Position numbers and translations under genes: made by a program
Notes under the pieces: model-generated
The model's database searches: none
The model's input: only the letters and a program-made list of their open reading frames with translations
Told to the model about the DNA's origin: nothing
Shown: positions 169-63,708 of the stretch, piece by piece
Position numbering within the stretch: position 1 is the stretch's first letter
Layout: every line of letters starts with the position of its first letter
Sequence record: OR621298
Strand: one strand, 5' to 3'
DNA: 64,000 nucleotides
DNA from: Escherichia phage vB_EcoD-Elw

Positions 169-174
169 ATTGTT

Positions 175-252: not shown

Positions 253-256
253 AATA

Positions 257-415
257 TTATTTCTTCAACCACAACAAAGATAAGCCCAGCATACTAAAGC
301 CGCTAACTAATCCGATACATTTTTCTTCTATAGTAAAAGTATCTAGATTAAATGCTGTTATAGCTATTGGCATACACCATAATGTCATAAAAACTTGAGC
401 TATCTTGTGTTTCAT
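257..415 (-). CDS. small hydrophobic protein (52 aa), hypothetical
   Basis: ATG at 415 preceded by GAAGGAAAG RBS; translates MKHKIAQVFMTLWCMPIAITAFNLDTFTIEEKCIGLVSGFSMLGLSLLWLKK; below the 60-aa cutoff of the ORF track. Confidence 0.45.
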   Translation of the reverse strand: MKHKIAQVFMTLWCMPIAITAFNLDTFTIEEKCIGLVSGFSMLGLSLLWLKK

Positions 416-447
416 TTTGCTTTCCTTCTCTTCACTTTATAAAATAT

Positions 448-476
448 ATTATACAGATAATATAGCAGAATAGCAA
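448..476 (-). promoter_or_regulatory. sigma70-type early promoter (TTGCTA-17-TATAAT)
   Basis: On minus strand: TTGCTA, 17-nt spacer, TATAAT; same motif recurs throughout the early region. Confidence 0.6.
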
Positions 477-787
477 ATGAATTTTTAATAAATTTACTTA
501 TTGTGTAGGCCACCTGGAGGCTACCAACCCCACGGCTGACAAAGAAGTTTGCGAGACCTCTCTTAAATGCCAGAATAGACCCGCCGATCTATCGGAACCT
601 ACATAATAAGTAAACTTTCGTTTACTTACGCCCCGTTAGAGGGACTTTAGCGACTAGAACCGGCCGGAAACTTCATCGCCTTGTTTATTCAGAAGTCCGT
701 TCTCTAGGGAGCAGAAATCTAAATTTGGTGGAGTTTGGGAGACTACGTGTTACTCCCTCTGTCCGAAGTAGGATAGTGCTTAACCGT

Positions 788-979
788 TTAGCTGAACCCC
801 TTTAAATATTTATACGTTTTATCTAACAACTCTTGTTTAGAGATTATACCATCACGATATTCAGTAATAAAATTATCTATGTTGGAGTCCTTTGATACAA
901 CGTTATCAGATAGCTCTGTGAATTTATTTGCTAAAAGATCTAATTCTTTGTAATTCACAAAACCTCCAGAATATGCCAT
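788..979 (-). CDS. hypothetical protein (63 aa)
   Basis: ORF only; no Shine-Dalgarno sequence, and the start codon lies inside the adjacent tRNA-like element. Confidence 0.3.
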   Translation of the reverse strand: MAYSGGFVNYKELDLLANKFTELSDNVVSKDSNIDNFITEYRDGIISKQELLDKTYKYLKGFS

Positions 980-1097
980 TCTAGACAGGACTCGAACCTG
1001 CTATCACTTGTGCGGACTTACGAGAACCATTCTTTCACTCGAATCGAACGAGCTTCTGCCCTAGCCAAGCTGGTTTCCCCATCAACCACGCTAGAAT
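978..1097 (-). ncRNA. anomalous tRNA-like element (two T-loop motifs, no encoded CCA)
   Basis: Two canonical T-arm motifs on minus strand (GCAGG-TTCGAGT-CCTGT and GCTCG-TTCGATT-CGAGT) 45 nt apart; only acceptor pairing found (ATTCTAG/CTAGAAT) spans about 120 nt. Confidence 0.3.
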
Positions 1098-1219
1098 GTT
1101 TGATTGTTTTCAGTGCAAGAGTCCGAGTCTTGGACACGACCGCTTCGCAAGTACATAGGCAGCTTATCATGAGTCAGCACTTCCGAATTGCTAGCTCCGT
1201 GTTCTGCACTGAGATTTTG

Positions 1220-1567
1220 TTAATTTAATAGTAAAGTACGATCTACTTCACCATTAATTGTTCGGCATTCCTCTGGAATTGCTGGTGTAGTCTTATATTC
1301 CCACCATTCAGAACCATCATATTCACCACGTTCTAACCAAGTTCCATCAGTAAACCATACGTTACCATAAAGCAATTGTCCACCGAAACCAGAATCATAT
1401 TTAAAGTCTAGATTATTTAGAAAATCTTCAATATCTTTTTCTGTATAACCTACGGGTAATACCCAAACTTCTTTGTCTCCATAATAACCGAATTCTATCT
1501 TAATACACTTAACTTCAGAATTAGTATTCTTTAGGGCAAGTAACAATTCTTCTTTAGCATTAATCAT
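1220..1567 (-). CDS. hypothetical protein (115 aa)
   Basis: ORF with ATG at 1567; no recognisable motif. Confidence 0.5.
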   Translation of the reverse strand: MINAKEELLLALKNTNSEVKCIKIEFGYYGDKEVWVLPVGYTEKDIEDFLNNLDFKYDSGFGGQLLYGNVWFTDGTWLERGEYDGSEWWEYKTTPAIPEECRTINGEVDRTLLLN

Positions 1568-1593
1568 AGCATATTTCTCATACTAAATTAATT

Positions 1594-1669
1594 TGGTACA
1601 CCCACTAGGACTTGAACCTAGAACCCTCCGCTTAAGAGGCGGTAGCTCTAACCATTGAGCTATGGGTGT
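1594..1669 (-). tRNA. tRNA-Lys (anticodon CTT)
   Basis: 76 nt; acceptor ACACCCA/TGGGTGT, D-arm GCTC..GAGC, anticodon loop CTCTTAA, T-arm CTAGG-TTCAAGT-CCTAG, encoded CCA. Confidence 0.7.
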
Positions 1670-1675
1670 ATTAAA

Positions 1676-1828
1676 TTACTTTTCCAGTTCATCAGCTATG
1701 GCTTTGATTTTTTCAAAGTTTACATCACTAATAATGATACCTTCCAGTGACAGAGATATTCTAGCATTTTTCATAGCAGATTCTTTTATCTGCTCTATTT
1801 CTTCTGGAGTAAACTCCCTACGTTCCAT
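1676..1828 (-). CDS. small hypothetical protein (50 aa)
   Basis: ATG at 1828 with AAGGTAGG RBS; MERREFTPEEIEQIKESAMKNARISLSLEGIIISDVNFEKIKAIADELEK; sits between tRNA-Lys and tRNA-Asp. Confidence 0.4.
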   Translation of the reverse strand: MERREFTPEEIEQIKESAMKNARISLSLEGIIISDVNFEKIKAIADELEK

Positions 1829-1845
1829 AGCTAACCTACCTTATT

Positions 1846-1922
1846 TGGCGCGACCGATGGGATTTGAACCCACATTCCCTCCCGTGACAGGAGAGTACCA
1901 TTACCAAGCCAGCCCCGGTCGC
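1846..1922 (-). tRNA. tRNA-Asp (anticodon GTC)
   Basis: Acceptor GCGACCG/CGGTCGC, anticodon loop CTGTCAC, T-loop TTCAAAT, encoded CCA. Confidence 0.7.
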
Positions 1923-1931
1923 ATAATTCAT

Positions 1932-2117
1932 TTACTCAGCTTTGAGCTTTTCAATAGCTGCATTAAGTTCTTTAAGAAACTCTTTTCGTACATTAAGACG
2001 ATTGAGACTTACTAGTATATCGTGTTTAAGTTCTTCGATGTATTTCTTTTCAACTTCAATATTGTTGATAGTGCTATCACGATGAACTTCTAGCTGCGCA
2101 ATTACATTCTTGGACAT
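1932..2117 (-). CDS. hypothetical coiled-coil protein (61 aa)
   Basis: ATG at 2117 with GAGGA RBS. Confidence 0.5.
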   Translation of the reverse strand: MSKNVIAQLEVHRDSTINNIEVEKKYIEELKHDILVSLNRLNVRKEFLKELNAAIEKLKAE

Positions 2118-2144
2118 GCTTGTTTCCTCAGTTATTAATGAAAA

Positions 2145-2217
2145 TGGTATCTGTGGCTGAATTCGATGTCAGCAATGATAGCTGGTTGGCTACCGGTTTA
2201 CTTAACTCTACACAGAA
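2145..2217 (-). tRNA. tRNA-like gene with non-canonical loops (anticodon unresolved)
   Basis: Encoded CCA, acceptor TTCTGTG/CACAGAT (6 bp), T-arm GCTGA-CATCGAAT-TCAGC with 8-nt loop; central stem GGTAG/CTATC with 8-nt loop; ends 2 nt from the next tRNA. Confidence 0.35.
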
Positions 2218-2219
2218 TT

Positions 2220-2297
2220 TGGCGGTTCCTGCTGGATTCGAACCAGCAAACCTCAACTTAACAAGATGCCGCTCTAACCAATTAGAGCTAAGGAACC
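2220..2297 (-). tRNA. tRNA-Asn (anticodon GTT), tentative
   Basis: Perfect acceptor GGTTCCT/AGGAACC, T-arm GCTGG-TTCGAAT-CCAGC, CCA, anticodon loop TTGTTAA; anticodon stem weak (3 of 5 pairs). Confidence 0.6.
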
Positions 2298-2792
2298 ATA
2301 TAAGTCAGAACTAGAGTTAATACGTTCTAGATATTTACTAAGATCCCTAGAATTTATACTAAACCACTCATGTTCTTTTAAATCTTTGAAATACTGGTGA
2401 ATTAGTTTTTCACCTTTTCGTTTGTCAAACCAAAACGACCAATGCTCTAATTTATAATCCCTATATGGGGAATAGGTCTGATATTGAGCTAATCTCTCTT
2501 TTGGATTTTGACTCATACCTATTTTATACTGATTTTTCCATGCAGGATTACTAATACAGTATACAAAACCTTCAGAAATAGGAAGTTTATTTTCCTGCTT
2601 AAACTTTATAAAGGAAAGTGCGGCAAGTTTTCTCGAATACATAGTATTCGTATTCTTTTTGGTATTACCATTAGTTCCTGAAAGATTTATATATTCTTCC
2701 ATAAATCTTTGGATTAGTTCTGCGGTTATACAGAAAGGCCCATTAGTAACAACGCCTTTCTTTACCAAACTATCAAAAACTTTTGTATGCAC
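2274..2792 (-). CDS. T5orf172 / GIY-YIG-like domain protein
   Basis: 172-aa ORF with GTG start and AAGGAAAG RBS; segment FVYCISNPAWKNQYKIGMSQNPKERLAQYQ resembles the T5orf172 (MUG113) domain; 3' end overlaps the tRNA at 2220-2297. Confidence 0.6.
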   Translation of the reverse strand: MHTKVFDSLVKKGVVTNGPFCITAELIQRFMEEYINLSGTNGNTKKNTNTMYSRKLAALSFIKFKQENKLPISEGFVYCISNPAWKNQYKIGMSQNPKERLAQYQTYSPYRDYKLEHWSFWFDKRKGEKLIHQYFKDLKEHEWFSINSRDLSKYLERINSSSDLYGSLALIG

Positions 2793-2813
2793 TACTTCTT
2801 TCCTTTAGTAAAT

Positions 2814-2889
2814 TGGACGACCGCATGAGATTTGAACTCACATAAAAAGGATTTGCAATCCTTCGCCTAAGCCCTTCAGCCAACGGTCG
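2814..2889 (-). tRNA. tRNA-Cys (anticodon GCA)
   Basis: Anticodon arm AAGGA-TTGCAAA-TCCTT (perfect), T-arm GTGAG-TTCAAAT-CTCAT, acceptor CGACCGT/GCGGTCG, CCA. Confidence 0.75.
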
Positions 2890-2958
2890 GTTTATCTTGT
2901 TCTGTCATGTTGCTTCTCCAGTTCAATTTATGTAATTATTATACAGAACTTTTGGAAA

Positions 2959-3231
2959 CTAAGCAACTACATTTTTTAAGAATTTGATGCCTTTCTTTTT
3001 CTTCTTATATTTCCACGTTAATGGATTCTGTCGATTATGAACGCTTGAGATCTTTGTCTCGTCAAAGTTCTTCAATATCATGTAATCACAGGATAATTGT
3101 TCTAGTAGAATGTGATCACCGTCAAAAGCGTATACATAAGGCTGTTGACTAACACGATAATGATAGACTTTGTTAATTCTACGTTTCAGCGACTTATCAG
3201 CGCAGTAAATAAAGAAGTTTTCAGGATGCAT
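2959..3231 (-). CDS. hypothetical protein (about 90 aa)
   Basis: In-frame ATG at 3231 preceded by AAGGAG; the longer ORF would start at TTG 3246. Confidence 0.5.
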   Translation of the reverse strand: MHPENFFIYCADKSLKRRINKVYHYRVSQQPYVYAFDGDHILLEQLSCDYMILKNFDETKISSVHNRQNPLTWKYKKKKKGIKFLKNVVA

Positions 3232-3248
3232 CAGCAGCTCCTTCAATT

Positions 3249-3323
3249 TGGTGCACCCTGTTCGTATCGAACGAACCTCTCAAGCTCTTCAGGCAAGCGC
3301 TAATCCATCTCAGCTAAAGGTGC
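3249..3323 (-). tRNA. tRNA-Phe (anticodon GAA)
   Basis: Acceptor GCACCTT/AGGGTGC, D-arm GCTG..TAGC, anticodon loop CTGAAGA, T-arm GTTCG-TTCGATA-CGAAC, CCA; anticodon stem has two U-U mismatches. Confidence 0.6.
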
Positions 3324-3329
3324 AAATTT

Positions 3330-3406
3330 TGGCAAACCTACTAGGACTCGAACCTAGACCGTACGGTTTTGGAGACCGACATGCTGTCCAGTAACACTCT
3401 AGGAAT
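3330..3406 (-). tRNA. tRNA-Trp (anticodon CCA), tentative
   Basis: T-arm CTAGG-TTCGAGT-CCTAG, CCA, anticodon loop CTCCAAA; acceptor stem has two U-U mismatches, so possibly degenerate. Confidence 0.5.
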
Positions 3407-3414
3407 GCAGAAAT

Positions 3415-3491
3415 TGGCGTCCTGTGCGGGGATCGAACCCGCAAATCCTACCTTGAAAGGGTAGTGACTTTACCAGTTTGTCTAACAGGAC
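3415..3491 (-). tRNA. tRNA-Glu (anticodon TTC)
   Basis: Acceptor GTCCTGT/ACAGGAC, anticodon arm CTACC-CTTTCAA-GGTAG (perfect), T-loop TTCGATC, CCA. Confidence 0.75.
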
Positions 3492-3498
3492 TTAAATT

Positions 3499-3589
3499 TG
3501 GTGTTGGATGATGGAGTCGAACCACCCGAGACCCTTCCGAGTCGGCAGATTTACAGTCTGCTTCGCTACCTCTACGATACTAATCCAAC
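3499..3589 (-). tRNA. tRNA-Tyr (anticodon GTA), long variable arm
   Basis: 91 nt; acceptor GTTGGAT/ATCCAAC, anticodon arm GCAGA-CTGTAAA-TCTGC, long variable arm, T-loop TTCGACT, CCA. Confidence 0.75.
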
Positions 3590-3654
3590 ATATTTAGAAG
3601 TATTCAAAAATTCTCATTTAAACACTTTTAAATATGCTTTCAAATTAGGTAACT

Positions 3655-3663
3655 ATTATACCA
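3655..3663 (-). promoter_or_regulatory. extended -10 promoter (TGGTATAAT) for the tRNA-Tyr/Glu/Trp/Phe cluster
   Basis: Minus-strand TGGTATAAT about 65 nt upstream of the tRNA-Tyr 5' end. Confidence 0.4.
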
Positions 3664-3672
3664 AGTTTTAAG

Positions 3673-3711
3673 GCACTGAGCAAGTCAAATTTTAAAGAAC
3701 TTGCTCAGTGC
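3673..3711. other. perfect 13-bp inverted repeat (stem-loop) downstream of the 3720-3995 gene
   Basis: GCACTGAGCAAGT..ACTTGCTCAGTGC with 13-nt loop; no U-run on either side, so likely a processing or stability hairpin rather than a terminator. Confidence 0.5.
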
Positions 3712-3719
3712 TATATTAG

Positions 3720-3995
3720 TTAGTCGAACTTAGGAGTGACAGTTAAGGAGAACGGAAGTTCGAAAACTTCTTCACCCTCATTACTAACGGTAACTACACG
3801 ACCTTTAAGTTCAGACATTAAAATATCAATATCAGCTTTTGCATCTGGAGCCATGCCAGCTTCAATACATTTAGCTTTAACCTCCGGTAGAAGATCTACG
3901 TTATAGAGATAGAGCCACTCAATCTCACCTTCCCAGTCTTCCCAGGATTTGCAGATTGCACTTTCAATACCAGTTGCTACAACACGATTTTGCAT
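3720..3995 (-). CDS. hypothetical protein (91 aa)
   Basis: ATG at 3995 with GAAGGAG RBS and an upstream TTGCCT-18-TATAAT promoter. Confidence 0.55.
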   Translation of the reverse strand: MQNRVVATGIESAICKSWEDWEGEIEWLYLYNVDLLPEVKAKCIEAGMAPDAKADIDILMSELKGRVVTVSNEGEEVFELPFSLTVTPKFD

Positions 3996-4025
3996 TCGTT
4001 AACTCCTTCATCAATTTATACAACT

Positions 4026-4055
4026 ATTATATCAGAAATTTAAAGCAAAAGGCAA
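4026..4055 (-). promoter_or_regulatory. sigma70-type early promoter
   Basis: Minus strand TTGCCT, 18-nt spacer, TATAAT. Confidence 0.55.
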
Positions 4056-4085
4056 GTACATTTTTAAAAATTCTGTTTGGAGGAG

Positions 4086-4292
4086 CTAAACTCCAGATTC
4101 TTCAGCTAAGTCTAGGCTAATAAGAGTTATAGCCATAATTGCTGCACCGTGTTCTTTTTCTCCGGTGTTTTTAGCAGAGTCTATAATAGTCTTAATCTGT
4201 TCGTAATAGCCTTTTACTTCTTGTTCAATACCTGCCTCGGCTATCATGCCTTTAGTCATGATTCGTTGCATAGTAATTTCACGGTTAGCCAT
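4086..4292 (-). CDS. hypothetical protein (68 aa)
   Basis: ATG at 4292 with GGAGA RBS; start overlaps the stop of the upstream small ORF. Confidence 0.5.
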   Translation of the reverse strand: MANREITMQRIMTKGMIAEAGIEQEVKGYYEQIKTIIDSAKNTGEKEHGAAIMAITLISLDLAEESGV

Positions 4293-4452
4293 GATGTTTC
4301 TCCAGCTTCATTTTTAATAGTTTACAAATGAAATCAACGTCTTCATCTGTACCTAGATCTCTATCTTCAAGAGTTGCCTTGAAGTTTTTAGTCAATTCCA
4401 TGAGGATAACTTCTCTAGAACGACGTGTTGGCGGAGGTGGATGTCTATACAT
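4285..4452 (-). CDS. small hypothetical protein (55 aa, proline-rich N-terminus)
   Basis: ATG at 4452 with AAGGAAA RBS; MYRHPPPPTRRSREVILMEL...; stop overlaps the next start. Confidence 0.4.
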   Translation of the reverse strand: MYRHPPPPTRRSREVILMELTKNFKATLEDRDLGTDEDVDFICKLLKMKLEKHHG

Positions 4453-4467
4453 CTTATTTCCTTAGTT

Positions 4468-4544
4468 TGGTAGGGGTGGTGGGATTCGAACCCACAAAAC
4501 CTGAATTTTAAGTCCAGTACCTATGCCAATTCGATTACACCCCC
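4468..4544 (-). tRNA. tRNA with anticodon TAA (Leu-type anticodon on a short-variable-arm body)
   Basis: Acceptor GGGGGTG/CACCCCT, anticodon arm CTGGA-CTTAAAA-TTCAG, T-arm GTGGG-TTCGAAT-CCCAC, CCA; no long variable arm; D-arm unclear. Confidence 0.55.
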
Positions 4545-4551
4545 GTGTAGT

Positions 4552-4740
4552 TTAGTCAATTACTTTTGAGGCTTCAAGGTAGTCGATATAGTGTATGTTT
4601 TCTACCGTAATCATATAATCTGCCACTTTATCCATAGCTTGGGCTTCAGAGGTAGCTCTGGCTAACCTATATCCTTTTTTATATTCATCCGGGTATTCTC
4701 TATCTTGGATAAACACAACATAAACTATATATAGATCCAT
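4552..4740 (-). CDS. hypothetical protein (62 aa)
   Basis: ATG at 4740 with AGAGG RBS. Confidence 0.5.
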   Translation of the reverse strand: MDLYIVYVVFIQDREYPDEYKKGYRLARATSEAQAMDKVADYMITVENIHYIDYLEASKVID

Positions 4741-4759
4741 TTGTGACCTCTATTTAATT

Positions 4760-4837
4760 TGGTGGCTCCCCGAGGATTCGAACCTACGTACCTTCCGGTT
4801 ATGAGCCGGGTGCTCATACCATATGAGCTTGAGAACC
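4760..4837 (-). tRNA. tRNA with anticodon CAT (elongator Met or Ile-lysidine type)
   Basis: Acceptor GGTTCTC/GGGAGCC (two G-U pairs), anticodon loop CTCATAA, T-loop TTCGAAT with weak T-stem, CCA. Confidence 0.55.
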
Positions 4838-4843
4838 AGAATT

Positions 4844-4932
4844 TGGCGGAAGAAGCGGGAATCGAACCCACAAGGCTATATTTCAAACCGACAGATTAGC
4901 AATCTGCTGCAATACCGTTATGCTATTCTTCC
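4844..4932 (-). tRNA. tRNA-Ser (anticodon GCT), long variable arm
   Basis: 89 nt; acceptor GGAAGAA/TTCTTCC, anticodon loop TTGCTAA, long variable arm, T-arm GTGGG-TTCGATT-CCCGC, CCA. Confidence 0.75.
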
Positions 4933-4947
4933 GAATTTATAAGATAT

Positions 4948-4976
4948 ATTATATTAGAAATTTAGCTTCATAGCAA
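4948..4976 (-). promoter_or_regulatory. sigma70-type early promoter (TTGCTA-17-TATAAT)
   Basis: Minus-strand consensus motif directly upstream of the tRNA-Ser/tRNA-CAT pair. Confidence 0.6.
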
Positions 4977-5472
4977 GAAAATTTTTCAAGTTTTCGGTAG
5001 ACATCTCATCCACATCTACGGGAGAAACAAAGCCGTTTAATTTTCTAGCAAATTTTTCACCCGCAGGATCATTATCTCCGACAGCTACCAATTTAAAAGG
5101 TAGTAATTTCAGTTGCTTTAATAACGCTTTTCCTGGAGAAGAACCCAACATTGCTAGGGCTGGATAACCAGCATTATGTAACGCAACTGCCTTAAATACA
5201 GATTCAGCAATCAATACTACTTTTTCATCTCCATTGAGAGTTTCTAGTCCCCATACACACTGGGTAGTAGAATAAGTAAAGTATTTAGCTTCAAAGGGGC
5301 ACTTACCATGACCTTTTGGAGCAGAAGGATTATAAGTTTGATAGCCCCTCAACATCCCAGAGAAGTCATACAACGGGACTGTTAGCCATCCTTCCGGACT
5401 TAACCAGCAATGATATTTATCTGTATCAAATCCTCTAGATAAGAGGTGCTGTGTTAGCTCATCAACATTCAT
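4954..5472 (-). CDS. TOPRIM-domain protein
   Basis: Start placed at the internal ATG 5472 (AAGAGGA RBS) because the longer ORF runs into its own promoter; conserved Glu (VVLIAESVF) and DxD (VAVGDNDPAG) TOPRIM motifs. Confidence 0.6.
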   Translation of the reverse strand: MNVDELTQHLLSRGFDTDKYHCWLSPEGWLTVPLYDFSGMLRGYQTYNPSAPKGHGKCPFEAKYFTYSTTQCVWGLETLNGDEKVVLIAESVFKAVALHNAGYPALAMLGSSPGKALLKQLKLLPFKLVAVGDNDPAGEKFARKLNGFVSPVDVDEMSTENLKNFLAMKLNF

Positions 5473-5502
5473 ATTTGGTTCCTCTTTCAAATTTATAGAT
5501 AT

Positions 5503-5531
5503 ATTATACAGAGAATTTAGCATTCAAGCAA
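5503..5531 (-). promoter_or_regulatory. sigma70-type early promoter (TTGCTT-17-TATAAT)
   Basis: Minus-strand consensus motif; start site about 25 nt upstream of ATG 5472. Confidence 0.6.
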
Positions 5532-5647
5532 TCAAATTTTTTAACTTTTTAGAGGAAAATCATAGGGCACTTAAGGATAGCAGATAAGTGGTGAGGACCA
5601 AAATTTGTGACCCCACTAAAAATTCAGGGGCAATTTTTAAAGACCCC

Positions 5648-5676
5648 TTGACATTTTCGCTGGGGTAGTGTAAAGT
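5648..5676 (+). promoter_or_regulatory. candidate promoter of the plus-strand island (TTGACA-17-TAAAGT)
   Basis: Perfect -35 TTGACA with 17-nt spacer and weaker -10 TAAAGT; short inverted repeats just upstream. Confidence 0.45.
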
Positions 5677-5737
5677 ATATGTTATGGATGAGTGATCAAA
5701 GAGACACACATTTTCTATATACTAGGAGGTGTCAAAA

Positions 5738-6721
5738 ATGACAGAAGAAGTAGCTAAGAGTCCTGAGACCGTCGCTAGCGTTGCAGCAGAACTGCACCGT
5801 CACGAGGAATCAGATAAGAAAAAGTGGGAGAAGGTCAGAGCCTACGAAGAAAAACATCGTGAACACGATGATGAAGAAGATGATGATGAACATTGTCATA
5901 AATATGGAAAACATAAAATGCAAGAACCAGTAAACGTATTTACTAGTGGCTTCCCTGGCCTACTGGGTGGTTACCCAGCAAACGCAGGTGCTTTCGGTGG
6001 TGAAGGTATGGGACTATTCGGAGCTATCCTAATCGGTGCTCTATTAACAGGCGGATTCGGTGGTTTCGGTGGATTCGGTGGACGTGGTGTAGTTGGTGAT
6101 GGTACCGCAGTTGATGCAGTACTTCAGAACCAAGATACCGCTAGTATTCTAGCAGCTATTAACACTACTCGTACAGAAGCTAACCAGGGTACTGGAGCTG
6201 TTTTAAGCGCAGTTAACAATGGGTTTAGCCAGACATCCCAAAACCAGAGCCGTGATACTCAGTCTGTACTAACTACGATCTATGGTACAGGTGCTAATCT
6301 GTCTAATCAGATCTGTCAGGAAACTCGCAACGTTATTCAGGGTCAGTTCGATCTTTCTCGCCAGATTGATCAATCTTTCGCAGCTAATCAGATAGCTCGT
6401 GCACAAGATAAGTTTGATTCTGCACAGATCGCTTTCCAGCAGACTTTACAAACTAATAACCAGTTTGCCGCTGTTCAGGCTCAGATGTGTGCTAACCAGA
6501 ACTCTCTGGAACGTCAGATCGCTGAATGTTGCTGTGAACTTCAGACTGCGATCGCTGGTGTAACTACTGCGCGTATTCAGGATGAGTTAGATGCATGTCG
6601 CCTACGTGAAGCAATCGCTGCGGGTAACGGTGCTAACGGTCAGGTAATTAATCAAATCGCTGTAAGTCTTGGTGCTATCACTCAGACTCTGGCTGGTCTG
6701 CAGGCTAAACTGCCGGCTTAA
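5738..6721 (+). CDS. glycine-zipper protein with His/acidic N-terminus and Gln/Asn-rich C-terminal half (327 aa), function unknown
   Basis: ATG 5738 with AGGAGG 8 nt upstream (track start 5729 is GTG); hydrophobic GxxxG-repeat segment GLFGAILIGALLTGGFGGFGGFGG; CCC motif; GGT/CGT/CTG-biased codon usage unlike neighbours. Confidence 0.7.
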   Translation: MTEEVAKSPETVASVAAELHRHEESDKKKWEKVRAYEEKHREHDDEEDDDEHCHKYGKHKMQEPVNVFTSGFPGLLGGYPANAGAFGGEGMGLFGAILIGALLTGGFGGFGGFGGRGVVGDGTAVDAVLQNQDTASILAAINTTRTEANQGTGAVLSAVNNGFSQTSQNQSRDTQSVLTTIYGTGANLSNQICQETRNVIQGQFDLSRQIDQSFAANQIARAQDKFDSAQIAFQQTLQTNNQFAAVQAQMCANQNSLERQIAECCCELQTAIAGVTTARIQDELDACRLREAIAAGNGANGQVINQIAVSLGAITQTLAGLQAKLPA

Positions 6722-6742
6722 TATTAAGGGGAGGAGCCCATT

Positions 6743-7159
6743 ATGAGTAAATATGGTTTTGTAAATAACGGACTTAATCAAAGTATGGGCTCCCAGCAGC
6801 CCATTCCGGGTCTGGATAACCCCTACTTACAACAATTGCAACAGCGTTTAGCAGAAGCGCAACAGATGCAGCAACAACTCCAGCAAAACCCTGGAAGTGT
6901 GAGTCCTATGCAAATGATGCAGCAAATGAGCGGGCAGTCGCAAATGCCTCAACAAATGCAGCAACAGGTGCCGCAGCAGCAAGCTCAGCAGCAAACCCAA
7001 CAACCGCAGGTTTCTGCGGAAGGACAGGCAGTACTAGCCCTTTTCGAAGACTTCGCAAAGACAGAGGATGGTAAGCAGCTTGTATCACTTATGGGTAAGT
7101 TTAATAGCTTCTGCCAAAGCCAGGTTGCAAAAGCTCAAAATAGTGGTAATAACTCCTAA
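6743..7159 (+). CDS. Gln-rich low-complexity protein (138 aa), function unknown
   Basis: ATG 6743 with AAGGGGAGGAG RBS; long QQ/MQ runs, ordered C-terminal 50 aa. Confidence 0.7.
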   Translation: MSKYGFVNNGLNQSMGSQQPIPGLDNPYLQQLQQRLAEAQQMQQQLQQNPGSVSPMQMMQQMSGQSQMPQQMQQQVPQQQAQQQTQQPQVSAEGQAVLALFEDFAKTEDGKQLVSLMGKFNSFCQSQVAKAQNSGNNS

Positions 7160-7168
7160 GGAGGAATT

Positions 7169-7363
7169 ATGTGTTGCAGAAAATCTGTTTCGTGCTGCCC
7201 AATGCCTGTAGCACGTTGTTGCTCTCCAGCAATGTTTACGCAAATACCGGCGTTCAATCCGTTTGCCTTTAAGCCTACTCTTATCCTGCCCCCTAGAGTA
7301 GATTTTCAGTCAAGATTGGCCTCCCGTATGGGTGGTTGCTGTAATAAGAGTATATGGTTCTGA
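7169..7363 (+). CDS. Cys-rich small protein (64 aa, four CC dipeptides), function unknown
   Basis: ATG 7169 with AAGGAGG RBS; MCCRKSVSCCPMPVARCCSP...GGCCNKSIWF; followed immediately by an intrinsic terminator. Confidence 0.6.
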   Translation: MCCRKSVSCCPMPVARCCSPAMFTQIPAFNPFAFKPTLILPPRVDFQSRLASRMGGCCNKSIWF

Positions 7364-7379
7364 AGAACCAAACAATAAA

Positions 7380-7413
7380 GCCCCTAGTCGAAAGACTTAG
7401 GGGCTTTTCTTTT
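7380..7413 (+). terminator. rho-independent terminator ending the plus-strand island
   Basis: Stem GCCCCTA/TAGGGGC with 11-nt loop, then TTTTCTTTT. Confidence 0.7.
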
Positions 7414-7420
7414 ATCTTAA

Positions 7421-7458
7421 ATACAGAAAAGCCCTGCGCTCTCCAGGAAACGCAGGGC
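7421..7458 (-). terminator. rho-independent terminator after the SPFH gene
   Basis: Stem GCCCTGCG/CGCAGGGC followed on the minus strand by TTTTCTGTAT. Confidence 0.65.
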
Positions 7459-7483
7459 TTATTTCAGATGTTACATGCGGGTA

Positions 7484-8431
7484 TTACTTATTACGCATAT
7501 CCATAATCATTTGGCCATCATAGCCAGTGCCAACCACAGTCTGCGGTACACCACCTTGGTATTTCTGAGCACGAATCATTTCAACTTCCAGTTGCTTCCA
7601 GCGAATCATCTCAGGAGTAATGGTACGTTGCAACGCGGCGTTAGCTTCAGCTTCTTTCTTAGCTGCGTACAGTTTGGCATCTGCGTCACGCTCATTGGCA
7701 ATAGCTTGGTTATTACGAGCTTCGCGATCTGCTTCTGCTTGTTTAACCTTCTGCTGTGCTTCTTGTTCAACACGAGCCAGTTCAGCTTTCGCAGCATTAA
7801 CTTGCTCTTCACGAACTTTGGTATTCTGTACCTGTTCCATGATTACCGGTGGCAAAGTAATATCCTGAAGGAATACCTGCTTAACTGTATAACCATATGG
7901 GCGTGCATACTCTTCAACTTCCTGTTGAATTGCAGTTTGCAATTGAGCCTGAATTTTAGCATCAAACAAATCTTGTGCTTTAGGTACAGACTTACCAAAC
8001 TCACGAATAGTAGACAGTAATTTTTCAGTTACATATTTGTCTAGCGCTTGATCCTGAGTACCTGCGTTAATACGGTTAATCGGTGCCTTAGAACCATCAA
8101 ACTGCAACATAACAGTCAGGTCAACAGTGGATTTAAACTTATCCTGACTAGGAACCTGAAGTTTATCTAATTTTAGAGCAATATCTTTAGTACTAAAAGT
8201 ATCGAAAGAAGCAAAAGGATTTACAATATGAAAGCCGGGTAGTACTGGGCTAGGGTCAACTTTACCCAGGAAAGTCTGGGTTTTAACAGTACCGTCTTGA
8301 ACAACGGTATAAGAGTTAAAGGCTAGAATCAAGCCTGCTAAACCAACTATAGCACCAATACCCCAACGTTTAATAGTACGAATTACTTTCTGCTCAGAAG
8401 TCAGTTCTTTCATATTTTTAGTATTAAACAT
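7484..8431 (-). CDS. SPFH/band-7 (stomatin/prohibitin/HflC-like) membrane protein
   Basis: 315 aa; N-terminal hydrophobic helix (WGIGAIVGLAGLILAF), central SPFH-like region, C-terminal Ala/Glu/Lys/Gln coiled coil; ATG 8431 with AAGGAAA RBS. Confidence 0.8.
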   Translation of the reverse strand: MFNTKNMKELTSEQKVIRTIKRWGIGAIVGLAGLILAFNSYTVVQDGTVKTQTFLGKVDPSPVLPGFHIVNPFASFDTFSTKDIALKLDKLQVPSQDKFKSTVDLTVMLQFDGSKAPINRINAGTQDQALDKYVTEKLLSTIREFGKSVPKAQDLFDAKIQAQLQTAIQQEVEEYARPYGYTVKQVFLQDITLPPVIMEQVQNTKVREEQVNAAKAELARVEQEAQQKVKQAEADREARNNQAIANERDADAKLYAAKKEAEANAALQRTITPEMIRWKQLEVEMIRAQKYQGGVPQTVVGTGYDGQMIMDMRNK

Positions 8432-8465
8432 ATATTTCCTTTGTTTTAGTTACAGTTAATAAAAT

Positions 8466-8540
8466 TGGCCGAGGTGACAGGATTCGAACCTGCATAAAGG
8501 AATTTAGAAGACTCCTGCCTCTCCATTAGACTACACCCCG
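8466..8540 (-). tRNA. tRNA-Arg (anticodon TCT)
   Basis: Acceptor CGGGGTG/CACCTCG, anticodon arm GGAGT-CTTCTAA-ATTCC, T-arm GCAGG-TTCGAAT-CCTGT, CCA. Confidence 0.75.
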
Positions 8541-58214: not shown

Positions 58215-61200
58215 TTAAGAATTTCCTAATGTTTTCAGACTAGCACCGTTCTCATTCAGAGCTAATTCTACTGCGTCTCTTAGAGCACCACTATTACTAG
58301 AAGCAAACTCTCTAAAACTTGCAGCATCCATAGCACTAATATTCAAGATGATAGGTCTTCCTGAAGTTGAGTTAGATGAGGTTTTTAGCTCATCATTAGG
58401 CGTAGCTTTCATAGGAACCATAGGGGTAACTACTTCTGTACCATGCTCACCCATTTGATAGCTAACCCCAGGGTACATATTACCACCCTCAGCACGAGGA
58501 ACGAAAGAGTTAGCACCGCCTATGCCTTTATCACCACGGATATAAGATAATTCACCAGCATTAGCAGACATAGACACATCTATATTCTTCTGACGCTCTC
58601 CTAAGGTTAGGTAACTAGTTGTATCCGCTCCAGAATCAGCAATACTTGACATACCAGATGCAGAAGATGCTTGTGCTAATGCCAATGCACCCGCTAAACC
58701 TGCCGCAACCATTAGTGGAATAGAGAACGGATATGGAACAGCGGTGGCTGCCTGCATTACAGCTACTGCAGTTTGGATGATAATCTGCTTCTTAGCTGCG
58801 TCTTGTTGAATCTTCAGCTTTTCAGCTTCCAACTTCTTCAACTTAGCTTTAGATGCTTCTGATTTACCATCACGTTTCTGCTCTGCTGCAATAGCCTGAT
58901 CAATTGCACTAACCTGCTGGTTGGTACTATACTGTATCATAGAAGATACGGTTTGCATACCAGAAGCAATCAGGGAAGTAGTATCTAAAGACCCCTGGGA
59001 GAACTGGATCATGGCATTAGTTAGATTACCCATACTTTGAGCCACAGCGGTTGCTTCAGAGTTTAGCTCAGATAATTTAGAGATTGCCTGGTCATAAGAA
59101 GCCATTCTATTTTGCATATCAGCAAAATCTTTATCTTCTCCAGATAGTCCAGTTGTAGGAGTATATACAGCACCTACAGAAGATCCAACAGAAGCTTGCA
59201 TCTCCGCATTTCTCTGTGCCCTTAAACCTGCTAGTTGTGCCCTAGTTTCAGCTATCTTTTTATTATACTCCGCTTGTGCCGCAGCATTACCTAATGTTTT
59301 CTGCTTTAAGTCTTCATATAATTTTAGCTGTTCCTGTAAGCGCTCCGCATTTCCCATTAATGGTTTAGTAGTAAATTGTCTTTGCTGTTCTTCCTCTCTA
59401 CCAGCAGCCATTGAAGCAATCTGATCTTGGCGGAATTTCCAGATTTCACGTTCAATTTGGGCTTGAGCACGTCTAGACTGTTCCGCCTCCTTCTGTTTAT
59501 CAGCTTGTTTTGTATACCATTCGTACTTCTCTTTTTCAATGGTCAATTCAAGATTTAACTGTGCTAGACGATACTGAGTATCTGTCATAGTACGGTTATT
59601 TAAGAGAGCTATCTCACGATCTACACCCAGGATTTTATCTGTATAATCCTTAACCTTCTTCTGGGCCTCCATACCCTGATTGGTAAGTTTAAGTTTCTCC
59701 AGCTGAATTTTTTCAATTTCTTTCTCAACAGCTTTATTTCCCTGGTTTGTTTGAAGAACACGGCGTAAAGCAGCTTCTTGCTCTTCTAACTGTTGGAGTT
59801 CTAAACGCCTACCGGCTTCCTGTGCTTTTTCTTTATCCTTAGTTTGGTTATATACATCAGCTATCTTCTGTTGAACTGCTAACTGATTTTTAGTTTCATT
59901 ACCAGTTAGTTTAACATACTCAGATAGAGCCTGAGATGCAGTTTTCATTTCAGACAGGGTGTTATAACCCAGATTAAGGTTTTTAACATATTCATCAGCA
60001 CTCTTACCAGTACCTAGAGATAGAGATTCTATGTTTTTTATAGCATCTGCTAAAGTAGCACTAGTTTTAGCAGCAGTATCTGTATTCTGAGCAACGTTCT
60101 GTATGTCATTAGCTAAGTCACTAGCCGTTTTCTTAGTCTGATTGTACGCTTTCTGCTGCTCAGTTAGTCCTTTTAATACAGTAGAGTTAAAATCGTATAC
60201 AGCATCAGGATCAGTAGTATCTCTCTGTAGATTAATTTGCTTCTGAAACTCTGGACTAGCCTTTGCAGCAGCGGCCCCAGCAGCTTGATACGCTGATTTC
60301 CAAGCATTGAGATTCTCTGTAGAATCCTCTACTTCCTTACCAAGTCTAGTTACTTGTAGACCCATAGCTGCAGTTTCTGCTACAAATTGCTTATTGGCCT
60401 CCGAAGCACCTGCTGCTGCAAGACCAACAGGAATACCTTCACCAACTTGACGTATAGCTAATTTTGTATAGAAATCTGCTTGTTCCATTCGTTTATCGAA
60501 CTCAGATTTTAGCTTATTACGCTTATCAAGAGATTCCTTATACATATCTAGAGCTTTATTATACCCTTCTTCAGAAGCGGCTAAACTTAAAGCAACAGCA
60601 CCAACGTTGGTAGGATCTATCTGTCTATTAGTTTTTTCTTGAGCTCTAGCTGCTTCAGCAGATACAGAAGCCTGAGAAGTATAAAATACTGTGTTGATAG
60701 CATCAATTACGGGCCCTAAGTATTTAGCAGCAGCCTGCTGAATCTTTCTCAGTGCGGCATCAGCATTAGCGGCAAATTGCTCCCACGGAGTAGCACGTAA
60801 AACTTCATCTAAGTAGCCAAAACGTTTAGTAGACTCTGCTATAACAGCATTAGCATACGCCTGCTGTTTCTGGAAAGTAGTAAGGCTGTTAATATTATAT
60901 GTTATACCTGTGTTTGCAGCATTTAACTGCTTAACGTAATCAGCATAAGCATCATTAAGACGAATAGTAACACCAAGTTCATCCAGAAGTTCGATTTCTT
61001 GTTTAGATACACCCTTAATTACACGGTTAAGTGCATCAGTCATATCAACGCCAAGAACAGCAGCAGCACGACGAGCTACTAAACCAAATTTATTAAGTTG
61101 TTCGGCGTCAAATCCATAAGCGGACGCTGAGGATGCTTGCCTCATAGCTTCTTCAAAAGAGATTGCATAGCCAGCTGCCTCTTGTAGTGATCTAGCAAGG

Positions 61201-61895
61201 GACTGAACAGGAGTACCTGTCTGAGTACCTACTATAACACCAAATTTTTCTAGACGATTTAGCTGATCACCTAGTTTAAGTTGTTCAAATGCTGATTGCA
61301 AAACGAAGATGTTGGAAGCAAGAGCTGCGTACATAATAGGTAGACTACCACCGATCTTAGCCATTGCCGCAAAATCACGAGTTGCACCACGTGCTGAACC
61401 AGAAGTATTACCAATAGCTCTAGAAGCTCTACCAGCGGCACCAGCAGTATCATTAAAACCCCTAGCTGTGCCACCTAATGCTCTATTAGTATCATATAAT
61501 CTATCCTGGACTTTTTCTGTTGCAGCTGCAACATCATTACCCATTGTTTTAACAGATCTAGAAACTCCATCGAATCCAATTTCTAGTTTATCTGTTACTT
61601 CAATAAGCTGGATAGCCAGGTAGTCTAGCTTATCACCAATACCATCAATGGATTTAGTGATACCAGCCATACCCCTACTAGCTTGCATTTTAGTAAGACT
61701 TTTCGCTGCTCTATCTGCTGCCCTCTCAATGGAATAAAGAGTTCTGGGCATTTTACCTAACTGCTCATTTGTCAGTTCGGAAGCAGCAGCAGCATTTTCC
61801 AACGCATCAGATACGTTTTCAATAGACTTTGCAGTACGAGTTGCCCCCTTCTGTTTAACGTCTATTAGTAATTCTCGTATTAGCTTATCAGTCAT
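58215..61895 (-). CDS. tail tape measure protein (T5 pb2-like)
   Basis: 1226 aa, mostly Ala/Gln/Glu/Lys-rich helical sequence; largest gene of the tail block. Confidence 0.85.
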   Translation of the reverse strand: MTDKLIRELLIDVKQKGATRTAKSIENVSDALENAAAASELTNEQLGKMPRTLYSIERAADRAAKSLTKMQASRGMAGITKSIDGIGDKLDYLAIQLIEVTDKLEIGFDGVSRSVKTMGNDVAAATEKVQDRLYDTNRALGGTARGFNDTAGAAGRASRAIGNTSGSARGATRDFAAMAKIGGSLPIMYAALASNIFVLQSAFEQLKLGDQLNRLEKFGVIVGTQTGTPVQSLARSLQEAAGYAISFEEAMRQASSASAYGFDAEQLNKFGLVARRAAAVLGVDMTDALNRVIKGVSKQEIELLDELGVTIRLNDAYADYVKQLNAANTGITYNINSLTTFQKQQAYANAVIAESTKRFGYLDEVLRATPWEQFAANADAALRKIQQAAAKYLGPVIDAINTVFYTSQASVSAEAARAQEKTNRQIDPTNVGAVALSLAASEEGYNKALDMYKESLDKRNKLKSEFDKRMEQADFYTKLAIRQVGEGIPVGLAAAGASEANKQFVAETAAMGLQVTRLGKEVEDSTENLNAWKSAYQAAGAAAAKASPEFQKQINLQRDTTDPDAVYDFNSTVLKGLTEQQKAYNQTKKTASDLANDIQNVAQNTDTAAKTSATLADAIKNIESLSLGTGKSADEYVKNLNLGYNTLSEMKTASQALSEYVKLTGNETKNQLAVQQKIADVYNQTKDKEKAQEAGRRLELQQLEEQEAALRRVLQTNQGNKAVEKEIEKIQLEKLKLTNQGMEAQKKVKDYTDKILGVDREIALLNNRTMTDTQYRLAQLNLELTIEKEKYEWYTKQADKQKEAEQSRRAQAQIEREIWKFRQDQIASMAAGREEEQQRQFTTKPLMGNAERLQEQLKLYEDLKQKTLGNAAAQAEYNKKIAETRAQLAGLRAQRNAEMQASVGSSVGAVYTPTTGLSGEDKDFADMQNRMASYDQAISKLSELNSEATAVAQSMGNLTNAMIQFSQGSLDTTSLIASGMQTVSSMIQYSTNQQVSAIDQAIAAEQKRDGKSEASKAKLKKLEAEKLKIQQDAAKKQIIIQTAVAVMQAATAVPYPFSIPLMVAAGLAGALALAQASSASGMSSIADSGADTTSYLTLGERQKNIDVSMSANAGELSYIRGDKGIGGANSFVPRAEGGNMYPGVSYQMGEHGTEVVTPMVPMKATPNDELKTSSNSTSGRPIILNISAMDAASFREFASSNSGALRDAVELALNENGASLKTLGNS

Positions 61896-61978
61896 GTTTT
61901 ATTTTTCCCAATAAAAAAGGCTCTGGGCAAATCACCCAGAGCCAAGCCTCATCGTGGAACGCCCATTGGAGGAAACTT

Positions 61979-62347
61979 TTACCGTGCACGAGATCTAGCA
62001 TGTGGCTTAACGTTAGGAATCCTTCCGTTTTGCGGTTTATGCTTCTCAGCACGTTTACGTGCAGCATCTACAGCTTTAGCATCAAATATATTGATAATGT
62101 GTAGAACAAATTCTTTCTCTATAGGATCAGTAATCCCATAAATATCAAATAAAACACCTAGAGCAGCCTTATCTTTACCTATAAAGATAGGAAAGTCACC
62201 TGGTATGAAGCAGTCAATTAGACTGTTATAAATATTCATACTAGTAGCTACAATAGGTGGAAAGTCTTCAAGTTCAACAGGCATGGCCTTAGGATCAGGC
62301 TCTATACCCATTGATTCACAAAGTATTAAATATTGTTGTTTAGTCAT
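61979..62347 (-). CDS. tail assembly chaperone, distal ORF (possible frameshift extension)
   Basis: 122 aa; its frame is open upstream to 62434, overlapping the last 8 codons of the preceding ORF in the +1 frame. Confidence 0.55.
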   Translation of the reverse strand: MTKQQYLILCESMGIEPDPKAMPVELEDFPPIVATSMNIYNSLIDCFIPGDFPIFIGKDKAALGVLFDIYGITDPIEKEFVLHIINIFDAKAVDAARKRAEKHKPQNGRIPNVKPHARSRAR

Positions 62348-62408
62348 TTTAGATGCTGAGCTTTTAATACACTTATCTGCAAAATCAGCAATAGCATCTA
62401 GGAGTTCT

Positions 62409-62828
62409 TTACGCTTTTGGGCTACGAAAAGTGTCTAAGTGGAACACTGTCTGGTTGATCCAAGAATCAAACGCAGCAGAGTTCTGCATGAGCATTACAG
62501 CATTATCGCGGCTAAAAGGAACTTCAGTAGCAGGATCAGCATCTGTTTCAATCAGCATCAGTTTTTCAACGTCACCTACAGTCAAACCGGTCCAACCTTT
62601 AATAGCTGCGTCAACGAAGGCTTCAATGAACTTATCATCATCCTGTACCTGAATCAAAGTACCATTAACCCATTCATCGCGTTTAGCAGAAGAAATAACA
62701 CGTTTAGAGGTAGCACGAGACATATAGTTAAGTTCTAATTTAAAGTTCGGCATACCTGGGTAGGAAAGAGTAATAGTACGAGTATCAAGAGTAATATCTT
62801 TTAAATTAATCATTTTTAATTTCTCCAA
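62409..62828 (-). CDS. tail assembly chaperone, proximal ORF
   Basis: 139 aa; between the collar/tail-tube genes and the tape measure gene. Confidence 0.6.
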   Translation of the reverse strand: MEKLKMINLKDITLDTRTITLSYPGMPNFKLELNYMSRATSKRVISSAKRDEWVNGTLIQVQDDDKFIEAFVDAAIKGWTGLTVGDVEKLMLIETDADPATEVPFSRDNAVMLMQNSAAFDSWINQTVFHLDTFRSPKA

Positions 62829-63708
62829 AGAAATCTATTCTCACTGGGTCTGAAGAAGCAGTAGGTATAATATCCCACTCAACTCTATACACATCTGAGA
62901 AATCTAGGCGTTTTGTAATACGTGCTGAAGGAAAATCTATAGAAATATTATTATTTCTTATATTTAAAGGTACATCTGTCTCCGGTTCGATATTGTAAAC
63001 CATATCTCCTGCAAAACGTTTTAAGTAATATAGAGAAATGGTTGCCGAAGCATTCATTTCATTTACATAAGCTCTTTTATTATTATAAATTTTATTTATA
63101 TCAAAAACACTCTTATCCTCTCTCCAGGAGCACTGCTGTTGGAAAGATAAAGAGGCAGAAATAAGACCGGGTAAGATGCTGCCATTAGTAGAAGCTATTA
63201 CTGGGCTGTAAGACATTACTTCACCCTGTATAATAGAAGCTGCTTCTCTATAGGTAGATACTTCTGAGAATTTCCCAGACTCAATACCAACATTAAGAAT
63301 TGGTATGTTCTTATCTAAAGAAAAATCTACCGTAGATACATAACAGTTTTCAAAATATGCACAGTTATTATCTTTATTTACTATATAGATATTGAACATA
63401 ATAGGTTCAATATTACTACTATATAGTGGGAGTAAGAAAGTATTACCTTTTCTATCAAAACCTAACCATTCAAAGAAGTTAGCCTCTGTAAGAGTATTAC
63501 TGAAATTTATTGCTAGAGAGATAGAAGAGGGGGTTTGAGCATTTATAATAGAGTCTGCATAGTTAGTTCTACGATGAACAGTCCTACGAAGAGTCTTGAA
63601 TTCCTCGTATGAAGTCTGTATATCATAGTTTGATAGGGCATCAAAATGAAATGCCCTACCATCATACTCAACTATAACTTTTGACTCTCGCATTAGAGAG
63701 TAGTACAT
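62806..63708 (-). CDS. tail structural protein (T5 p140-like collar protein)
   Basis: 300 aa; between the Ig-domain tail tube gene and the chaperone genes. Confidence 0.55.
   Translation of the reverse strand: MYYSLMRESKVIVEYDGRAFHFDALSNYDIQTSYEEFKTLRRTVHRRTNYADSIINAQTPSSISLAINFSNTLTEANFFEWLGFDRKGNTFLLPLYSSNIEPIMFNIYIVNKDNNCAYFENCYVSTVDFSLDKNIPILNVGIESGKFSEVSTYREAASIIQGEVMSYSPVIASTNGSILPGLISASLSFQQQCSWREDKSVFDINKIYNNKRAYVNEMNASATISLYYLKRFAGDMVYNIEPETDVPLNIRNNNISIDFPSARITKRLDFSDVYRVEWDIIPTASSDPVRIDFFGEIKND

Follow-up and report, generated by a model that had tools for sequence, protein, structure and literature searches.

A conserved UUU_CGN motif as the probable +1 frameshift site between the two tail assembly chaperone genes of T5-like phages

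The tail module of Escherichia phage vB_EcoD-Elw, a relative of phage T5, contains two adjacent open reading frames (ORFs) for tail assembly chaperones, a proximal G-like and a distal T-like one. In a stretch of 64,000 nucleotides (nt) of this genome (sequence record OR621298), which was analyzed at its full length and is called the window, the two ORFs overlap on the minus strand. From their sequences it is probable that a G-T fusion protein is made by a +1 slip of the ribosome on UUU_CGU (62429-62424). Comparison with relatives strongly indicates that a +1 shift at this junction is under selection in the T5 family, and an uncultured sister clade carries canonical -1 sites at the homologous position.

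Results

Frame relation of the two ORFs

The proximal ORF (62813-62409) encodes MINLKD...HLDTFRSPKA* and its end reads ...CAC TTA GAC ACT TTT CGT AGC CCA AAA GCG TAA, with the TAA at 62411-62409. The frame of the distal ORF, which has its stop codon at 61981-61979, is open upstream to 62434 and reads TAG (62437-62435) ACA CTT TTC GTA GCC CAA AAG CGT AAA GAA ... ATG (62347), with an offset of +1 (equal to -2) from the proximal frame. A previous reading of this DNA, made from the sequence only, had given the distal ORF (61979-62347), its frame open to 62434, the proximal stop codon, the overlap of eight codons and the +1 relation, and all of them were found to be correct by direct reading and translation. 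The -1 frame closes soon, as this sequence-only reading had stated: it reads CAC TTT TCG TAG and is closed by the TAG at 62424-62422. No heptamer of the type X_XXY_YYZ is present in the overlap of the window. That a fusion needs a shift into the +1 frame (equivalent to -2) is evident from the frames, and the comparative data indicate selection for such a shift. By itself, a stop-free extension of 29 codons in a single genome is not remarkable. It is lifted above chance by its conservation throughout the family and by a coding-type substitution pattern.

Conservation of the +1 relation and of UUU_CGN

About 25 lineages of T5 relatives from cultured genera and metagenomic contigs were compared. 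The cultured phages were T5 (L030), other Tequintavirus, Epseptimavirus, Sugarlandvirus, Erwinia KEY and Eos, together with Enterobacter KKP_3711, Serratia Slocum, Pectobacterium My1, Providencia PR1/PSTCR5 and Proteus Novosibvirus. Also among them were the Vibrio phages VspSw_1, Ceto, JSF10/phi3, D260 and D378; the metagenomic +1 lineages were L069, L103, L105, L106, L107 and L108. The distal frame lies +1 in every cultured Demerecviridae genus examined and in the six metagenomic lineages, with protein identities to the window down to ~30%. All +1 lineages carry an in-frame TTT CGN in the overlap, where N is mostly T, in several cases A and once C.

The length of the overlap varies from 14 to 122 nt among the +1 lineages. 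In My1 (TTA GAC TCC TTT CGT TAA) and D378 (TTA AAC AAC TTT CGT TAA) the stretch open to a shift has about four codons, as it has in JSF10, where it opens at GGT GGG TTT CGT..., and the sole element common to these three is TTT CGN. The codon in the E site is varied (ACU, ACC, ACG, AAC, AAU, CAC, CGA, GGG, UUG, UCU, UCC or UCA). Past CGN the tail in the zero frame counts 0-11 codons and is unconserved. In three T5-like genomes (L029, L040, L086) the TAG of the +1 frame is lost by CAC CTC GAC in place of CAC TTA GAC, which extends the overlap to 86 nt; the TTT CGT site is unchanged.

Two slip sites in the overlap had been proposed from the sequence, ACU_UUU_CGU and CCA_AAA_GCG, and both are present. 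The first one gains from the comparison, with UUU_CGN in every +1 lineage, whereas the second one loses: because CCA_AAA_G is absent from many lineages it is not the site of the family. The chaperone pairs of related phages, which had been named as a check on the proposal, keep the +1 relation and UUU_CGN in ~25 lineages. Taken together, the sequences strongly indicate that the +1 shift is under selection in the T5 family.

The linker is conserved and initiation signals are missing

Between the proximal stop codon and the ATG at 62347 lies a spacer of 61 nt, whose substitutions are those of a coding sequence read in the distal frame. In 32 distinct T5-like sequences it has 5, 1 and 15 variable sites at the first, second and third codon position of this frame, and the flanking ORFs show a like pattern (26/4/88 and 18/12/75). 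Counted from the shift site up to the ATG, the whole linker occurs in 21 nucleotide haplotypes that encode 3 peptides, and it can be aligned with the linkers of all other lineages. An AlphaFold2 model of the distal-frame product, based on an alignment of 41 sequences, reached a mean predicted local distance difference test score (pLDDT) of 91, in which linker residues 2-24 are helical with pLDDT 93-96.

No ATG, GTG or TTG is present in the distal frame between the upstream stop and 62347. The ATG at 62347 itself has a Shine-Dalgarno (SD) duplex of -0.1 kcal/mol, weaker than those of 48 of the window's 52 long ORFs; the proximal ORF has a good SD sequence (-6.4 kcal/mol). A promoter-like site was not found in the chaperone region. 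Moreover, in Sugarland, KEY, Slocum and most Vibrio phages the methionine of 62347 gives way to I, V, L or F, an ATG nearby is lacking in KEY and Ceto, and three different starts of the distal ORF have been chosen by annotators.

An uncultured sister clade with -1 sites

In more than 35 uncultured relatives with 33-39% identity the distal ORF lies in the -1 frame. This clade consists of ~24 IMG/VR loci, 11 JGI/ENA metagenome loci and L102, mostly from environmental samples. Its overlaps carry G_GGA_AAC, A_AAU_UUU or A_AAU_UUC at the homologous column. The fusions predicted for the -1 heptamer clade and for the +1 UUU_C clade align without gaps through junction and linker, share the downstream motif (M/I/V/L/F)(T/S)KEQY, and have homologous nucleotides at the junction in the distal frame (CTT TTC GAA in the -1 clade, CTT TTC GTA in T5). 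In this alignment the clades differ by the frame offset of the G ORF at the junction. The canonical -1 heptamers at the same position therefore argue that the family depends on recoding and that the direction was switched at one site. They also bear out, in the same protein family, the earlier remark that chaperone pairs usually shift by -1.

Among 144 representative homologues of the T domain there is no in-frame G-T fusion. Two long proteins that match the T domain at several places, P0006 (1455 amino acids) and P0135 (554 amino acids), consist of low-complexity tandem repeats and are most likely spurious. In the -1 clade (L057 255-2270 and other loci) a pb6-like tube gene adjoins the chaperone pair without p140 between them, and some contigs of this clade have ~100 kb, which is T5-like in size.

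Proposed mechanism

Most ribosomes would stop at the proximal stop codon and give the G-like protein of 134 amino acids. A minority would shift while UUU (62429-62427) occupies the P site and CGU (62426-62424) the A site. With its anticodon GAA, the tRNA-Phe would move one base in 3' direction, from UUU with its G:U wobble at the third position to UUC (62428-62426), where the pairing is fully Watson-Crick. Decoding would resume in the +1 frame at GUA (62425-62423) and continue through the helical linker of 26 residues and the T-like domain, resulting in a G-T fusion of 277 amino acids (...HLDTF-VAQKRKELL...). The tryptic junction peptide expected from a +1 shift at UUU_C is DNAVMLMQNSAAFDSWINQTVFHLDTFVAQK. 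In analogy to gpG/gpGT of phage lambda, pb2, the tape measure protein, would be the binding partner of the G part and the tube protein pb6 would be brought in by the T part, and the G:GT ratio would be set by the low frequency of the shift. The occurrence of the shift, its efficiency and the roles of the domains are what we infer from these data.

A cluster of 13 tRNA genes is located at 91-8540 of the window on the minus strand and has a tRNA-Phe(GAA) and a tRNA-Arg(UCU). No tRNA reading CGN is encoded in the part of the cluster that lies within the window.

Constraint on the motif and points against the proposed shift

Several points weigh against a +1 slip at UUU_CGU, as do the join in the record of phage Shivani, the behavior of T5.142 alone and a published prediction for T5, which are given with the alternatives below. 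The fusion protein is a predicted one and the whole case for it is built on comparison. Both E. coli and this phage use CGU more than any other Arg codon (CGT makes up 357 of the 722 Arg codons in the window), and because of this the classical stimulus of a 'hungry' A-site codon is missing; CGA occupies the A site in some Vibrio and metagenomic lineages. It would be pure speculation that the host tRNA-Arg(ICG) becomes limiting late in infection. In addition, a conserved stimulator near the site, either SD-like or an RNA structure, was not found. The junction has no match in Rfam, no common structure emerged when 75 nt to either side of it were folded for 11 lineages (z -4.2 to +1.0), and an SD-like element before UUU is present only in JSF10/phi3 (GGUGGG).

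In the T5-like genomes the trough of synonymous variation at 62439-62486 coincides with a predicted hairpin at 62484-62442, which ends 12 nt 5' of the UUU codon. Against shuffled sequences this hairpin has z values of -1 to -1.9, which is not significant, and it was not found in other genera. As it is invariant among the T5-like genomes it shows no covariation.

The motif is also conserved partly at the level of the protein, because all G proteins of the +1 clade have the F and the R. Furthermore, the window's other genes show no depletion of in-frame TTT_CGN (9 observed against 9.4 expected), and therefore the shift must have a low efficiency or depend on its context. Across the 52 long ORFs of the window TTT accounts for 58% of the Phe codons overall and for 39% of those before C, and CGT and CGA together for 57% of the Arg codons. 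Given F-R, the joint expectation for TTT with CGT or CGA is p ~0.2-0.33 per lineage, and UUU_CGN is kept against its synonymous alternatives in all ~25 lineages; these lineages share ancestry and are not fully independent, which also counts against the proposed shift and makes the motif probabilities indicative and not exact. Both TTC and TTT are found for the corresponding Phe codon of the -1 sister clade. The +1 lineages all have the G of CGN, whether their residue in the +1 frame is Val or Glu, and this fixed G after TTC therefore points to a constraint on the nucleotides and not on the protein.

The choice of the Phe codon in the 52 long ORFs follows the next base, with ~39% TTT before C or T versus ~70% before A or G. 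This bias fits an avoidance of shift-prone UUU-pyrimidine sites.

Alternative explanations

Recoding could also take place at the A run CCA_AAA_GCG (62420-62412), by a +1 move of tRNA-Lys from AAA to AAG (...FRSPK-RKELL) or by a -2 shift (...FRSPKK-RKELL). The re-pairing from AAA to AAG is good, a programmed -2 shift is documented for the tail chaperone pair of phage Mu (PMC3498833, PMC5009743), and the overlaps of Tequintavirus, Epseptimavirus, Sugarland, JSF10/phi3, PR1/PSTCR5 and KKP_3711 contain the A run. Among 20 annotated records examined, a joined chaperone coding sequence (CDS) is found only in Salmonella phage Shivani (KP143763; AJA73579.1, RefSeq YP_009194776.1), and this sole joined record puts the join at the A run. 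Its two-piece CDS 'tape measure chaperone' (L110 5208-6039) has, by exact look-up, a -2 join at TCA_AAA_G and gives the product ...HLDTFRSSKKRKELL..., which with its 277 amino acids is exactly that of the -2 model. However, the proximal stop lies before the A run, or the run is absent, in KEY, My1, Eos, Slocum, the Proteus phages, VspSw_1 and Ceto, and there is likewise no usable A run in D260, D378, L069, L103, L105 and L108, while all these lineages still keep the +1 relation and UUU_CGN. The run of Sugarland is AAA_C, which allows only poor re-pairing, and a tRNA-Lys moved by -2 lands on CAA with a mismatch at the first position. The A run itself is accounted for by conserved Gln-Lys/Asn residues in the +1 frame, and we regard a shift at this place as rather unlikely.

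If there was no recoding at all, the distal ORF would be a gene of its own that starts at the ATG at 62347, at a downstream ATG or by re-initiation, and the upstream open frame would be a relic. Two separate genes are annotated in nearly all of the ~900 database records, a methionine aligned with 62347 is present in many homologues and many gene calls begin there. T5.142, the homologue of the distal ORF in T5, is stable and active when made by itself from its ATG and binds RorSlfn5 (PMC13056530), by which a free T protein is physically possible. In a later announcement from the centre that published Shivani, a chaperone 'similar to T5' is described without a predicted frameshift signal, citing Zivanovic 2014 (PMC6256483). 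This explanation is opposed by the coding-type evolution of the spacer and by a linker peptide kept across genera and also in the -1 clade, as well as by an ATG at 62347 that has neither an SD sequence nor a promoter-like site, that is replaced in other phages with no substitute nearby in KEY and Ceto, and that competes with other starts in the annotations. The two ORFs overlap in every lineage and the junction of the sister clade has canonical -1 heptamers, so that a separate gene seems quite improbable. The chance is very small that polymerase slippage on the T run, a -2 shift at UUU or out-of-frame binding of a tRNA in the A site leads to the +1 frame, even if four T in a row (CTTTTC) occur in the window and both -2 shifting and transcriptional slippage are documented elsewhere (PMC5009743). 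In most lineages the T run has just three bases (ACC/AAC/GGG/ACG TTT CG), and with 3-4 bases it is far short of what polymerase slippage needs, which makes this route implausible. A -2 shift at UUU was rejected on sequence, as the preceding codon is highly variable and the re-pairing mismatched in most lineages, and out-of-frame A-site binding leaves the fixation of TTT over TTC unexplained.

The two ORFs as chaperone halves and their neighborhood

The assignment of the two ORFs as a tail assembly chaperone pair, made in the sequence-only reading, agrees with the profile matches and with the position of the pair between the tube/p140 genes and the tape measure gene. The proximal ORF matches positions 12-139 of PHROG_313 'tail assembly chaperone' (258 positions) with E=1e-33, and the distal ORF matches positions 170-258 of the same profile, besides PHROG_3914 with E=4e-57. 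An artificial fusion of both covers 12-258 of PHROG_313 in a single collinear stretch. Both ORFs carry the name tail assembly chaperone in RefSeq records. A Pfam-A scan of the pair gave no match; homologues of the proximal protein match PF27119 (Phage_YdaY) with a strength from unmarked to faint. The positions D18, D68 and I72, which are the reported escape positions of T5.142 (PMC13056530), fit the sequence of the distal ORF. On the level of the fold, weak matches link the T domain to proteins annotated as GT fusions in other siphophages, and no solved structure related to the chaperone pair was found by sequence or by fold. These results support an assignment of the pair as the G half and the T half of a lambda-type chaperone for tail assembly.

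With the Escherichia phages NG_A1 and vB_EcoS_FFH1 (Tequintavirus, Demerecviridae) the window region shares 99.8-99.9% identity, and at least 80% identity is reached by 445 phage records. The T5 tail module on the minus strand contains in this order the end of pb6, p140, the proximal ORF, the distal ORF and pb2, and also pb9 and pb3. The positions of the features are listed in Table 1. A strong terminator-like hairpin of 11 bp with 7 GC pairs (61919-61943) falls inside the expected single tail operon, and this element is called a terminator in the records of Lindwurm, Sugarland, KEY, PR1 and Slocum.

Table 1. Positions of the chaperone pair, the predicted frameshift elements and neighboring features in the window.
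Feature	Position	Strand	Basis or remark
Overlap of both frames, 26 nt (last 8 sense codons and stop)	62409..62434	-	only place for a joining shift
Candidate shift cassette ACU_UUU_CGU (E, P, A sites)	62424..62432	-	in-frame TTT CGN in all +1 lineages examined
Alternative slip site CCA_AAA_GCG	62412..62420	-	Shivani join; unconserved beyond some enterobacterial lineages
Predicted G-T fusion coding region, 277 amino acids, ~31 kDa (rough)	61979..62813	-	62813-62427 joined to 62425-61979, base 62426 skipped
Linker in the distal (+1) frame, VAQKRKELLDAIADFADKCIKSSASK	62348..62425	-	predicted long helix
Strongest synonymous-site conservation of the G-T region, T5-like genomes	62439..62486	-	permutation p ~0.004
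Proximal tail assembly chaperone ORF, G-like, T5.143 homologue, 134 amino acids	62409..62813	-	PHROG_313, RefSeq FFH1 name
Distal ORF, T-like domain, T5.142 homologue	61979..62347	-	PHROG_3914, PHROG_313 positions 170-258
Baseplate tube protein p140, upstream neighbor	62806..63708	-	Pfam PF23779 (Baseplate_Tube_p140) E=3e-140
Tape measure protein pb2, 1226 amino acids, downstream neighbor	58215..61895	-	gene order
Terminator-like hairpin with T tail	61919..61943	-	between distal ORF and tape measure gene

Discussion

Frameshifting in tail chaperone genes is well known. Judged by its sequence, the site described here belongs to two known kinds, the frameshift sites of tail chaperones and the UUU_C/UUU_CGN +1 sites. 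In phage lambda gpG and gpGT are made by a programmed -1 frameshift on G_GGA_AAG (Levin 1993, Xu 2004, summarized in PMC5009743 and PMC4493119). Like the lambda genes, the pair of the T5 family is located between tube and tape measure genes, has a second ORF without initiation signals of its own and is predicted to give, out of one mRNA, a short product and a C-terminally extended fusion, and the lambda heptamer is nearly identical to the G_GGA_AAC of the uncultured sister clade. In contrast to lambda, the second ORF of the T5 family lies in the +1 frame, there is no X_XXY_YYZ, and a P-site slip of a single tRNA is proposed instead of a tandem slip.

The closest core sequence is found in PA-X-like sites. 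Influenza PA-X is produced by a +1 shift on UCC_UUU_CGU, which was verified by mass spectrometry and mutagenesis and has ~1% efficiency and no known stimulator (PMC3498833; PMC5009743). In amalgaviruses the +1 motif is UUU_CGN, for which a slip in the P site was inferred (PMC5052127), and UUU_CGN sites of this type also occur in fijiviruses and in chronic bee paralysis/Lake Sinai viruses (PMC3498833, PMC5052127). The site of the T5 family has the identical UUU_CGN core, a new ORF in the +1 frame, the putative move of tRNA-Phe from UUU to UUC and no evident RNA stimulator. The full UCC_UUU_CGU is present in phage My1, which is the only one with UCC in the E site (ACU in the window). The differences are the bacterial host, the variable E-site codon, the product, an assembly chaperone instead of a polymerase/shut-off factor, and CGU, which is the most used Arg codon here and a rare one there (Table 1 of PMC3498833). 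Further, the PA-X shift was verified experimentally, whereas that of the T5 family is predicted from sequence comparison.

Solutions other than -1 exist for the same gene pair, as the tail chaperone pair of Mu uses a -2 frameshift (~2.2%) and the haloarchaeal virus HSTV-2 a probable +1 shift (PMC3498833, PMC5009743). Both reach the +1/-2 frame, but with different shift sites, and a -2 re-pairing would be mismatched in most T5 relatives. Bacterial UUU_Ynn sites prone to +1 shifts include the YopN-TyeA hybrid of Yersinia, the mechanism of which is debated (PMC5009743, PMC4914553). There, too, a +1 shift at UUU-pyrimidine fuses adjacent ORFs with no stop codon occupying the A site; unlike these sites, the T5 site is conserved family-wide with a fixed CGN in the A site. 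A +1 slippage in the P site that gives a longer product would also be shared with prfB (RF2) and with SPP1 gp17.1* and a Listeria phage. These need a stop codon to occupy the A site (CUU_UGA, CCC_UGA/UAA), and prfB also an upstream SD sequence, features that are absent here: the A site of the window has CGU, and most lineages have no SD-like sequence upstream.

The idea of a fusion in a T5 relative is already contained in one database entry, that of Shivani. The announcement paper of this phage is silent on the join in its GenBank record; the distal ORF of Shivani ends one codon earlier than that of the window. No paper on a frameshift in the T5 chaperone pair was found, and the literature searched has no account of the family-wide +1 relation, of the UUU_CGN site or of the -1 sister clade. 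T5.142 was reported as the trigger of the bacterial Schlafen nuclease RorSlfn5, and this 2026 study treats it as a free-standing protein (PMC13056530).

More tentatively, and with somewhat less than even chances of holding in all its parts, UUU_CGN may be a self-sufficient +1 cassette in both bacteria and eukaryotes. The preference for CGN would then come from the inosine-34 tRNA-Arg or from the ribosome and not from codon rarity, the T5 family would have swapped a -1 heptamer for this cassette at the same codon, and the trigger of pSlfn5 would be a fusion of low abundance.

For the field of recoding the T5 site would be a bacterial and family-wide use of UUU_CGN where CGU is abundant. It bears on the reason for the CGN preference of the A site, a question that thereby becomes testable in E. 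coli. If true, T5 in E. coli would provide a genetic system for a signal that until now was known only from eukaryotic viruses, influenza among them, and the paired -1 and +1 clades would represent a natural switch of frameshift direction at one gene position. Phage T5 serves as a model, and phages related to it are widely isolated for use in therapy and biocontrol. With a defined site, the annotations as two unrelated genes with inconsistent starts in almost all of the ~900 records would be corrected and the setting of the G:GT ratio explained. The finding on the RorSlfn5 trigger would need to be reread as well, since in infected cells the T5.142 domain may exist mainly within the rare fusion; if so, the natural Schlafen trigger would be the G-T fusion of low abundance and not free T5.142.

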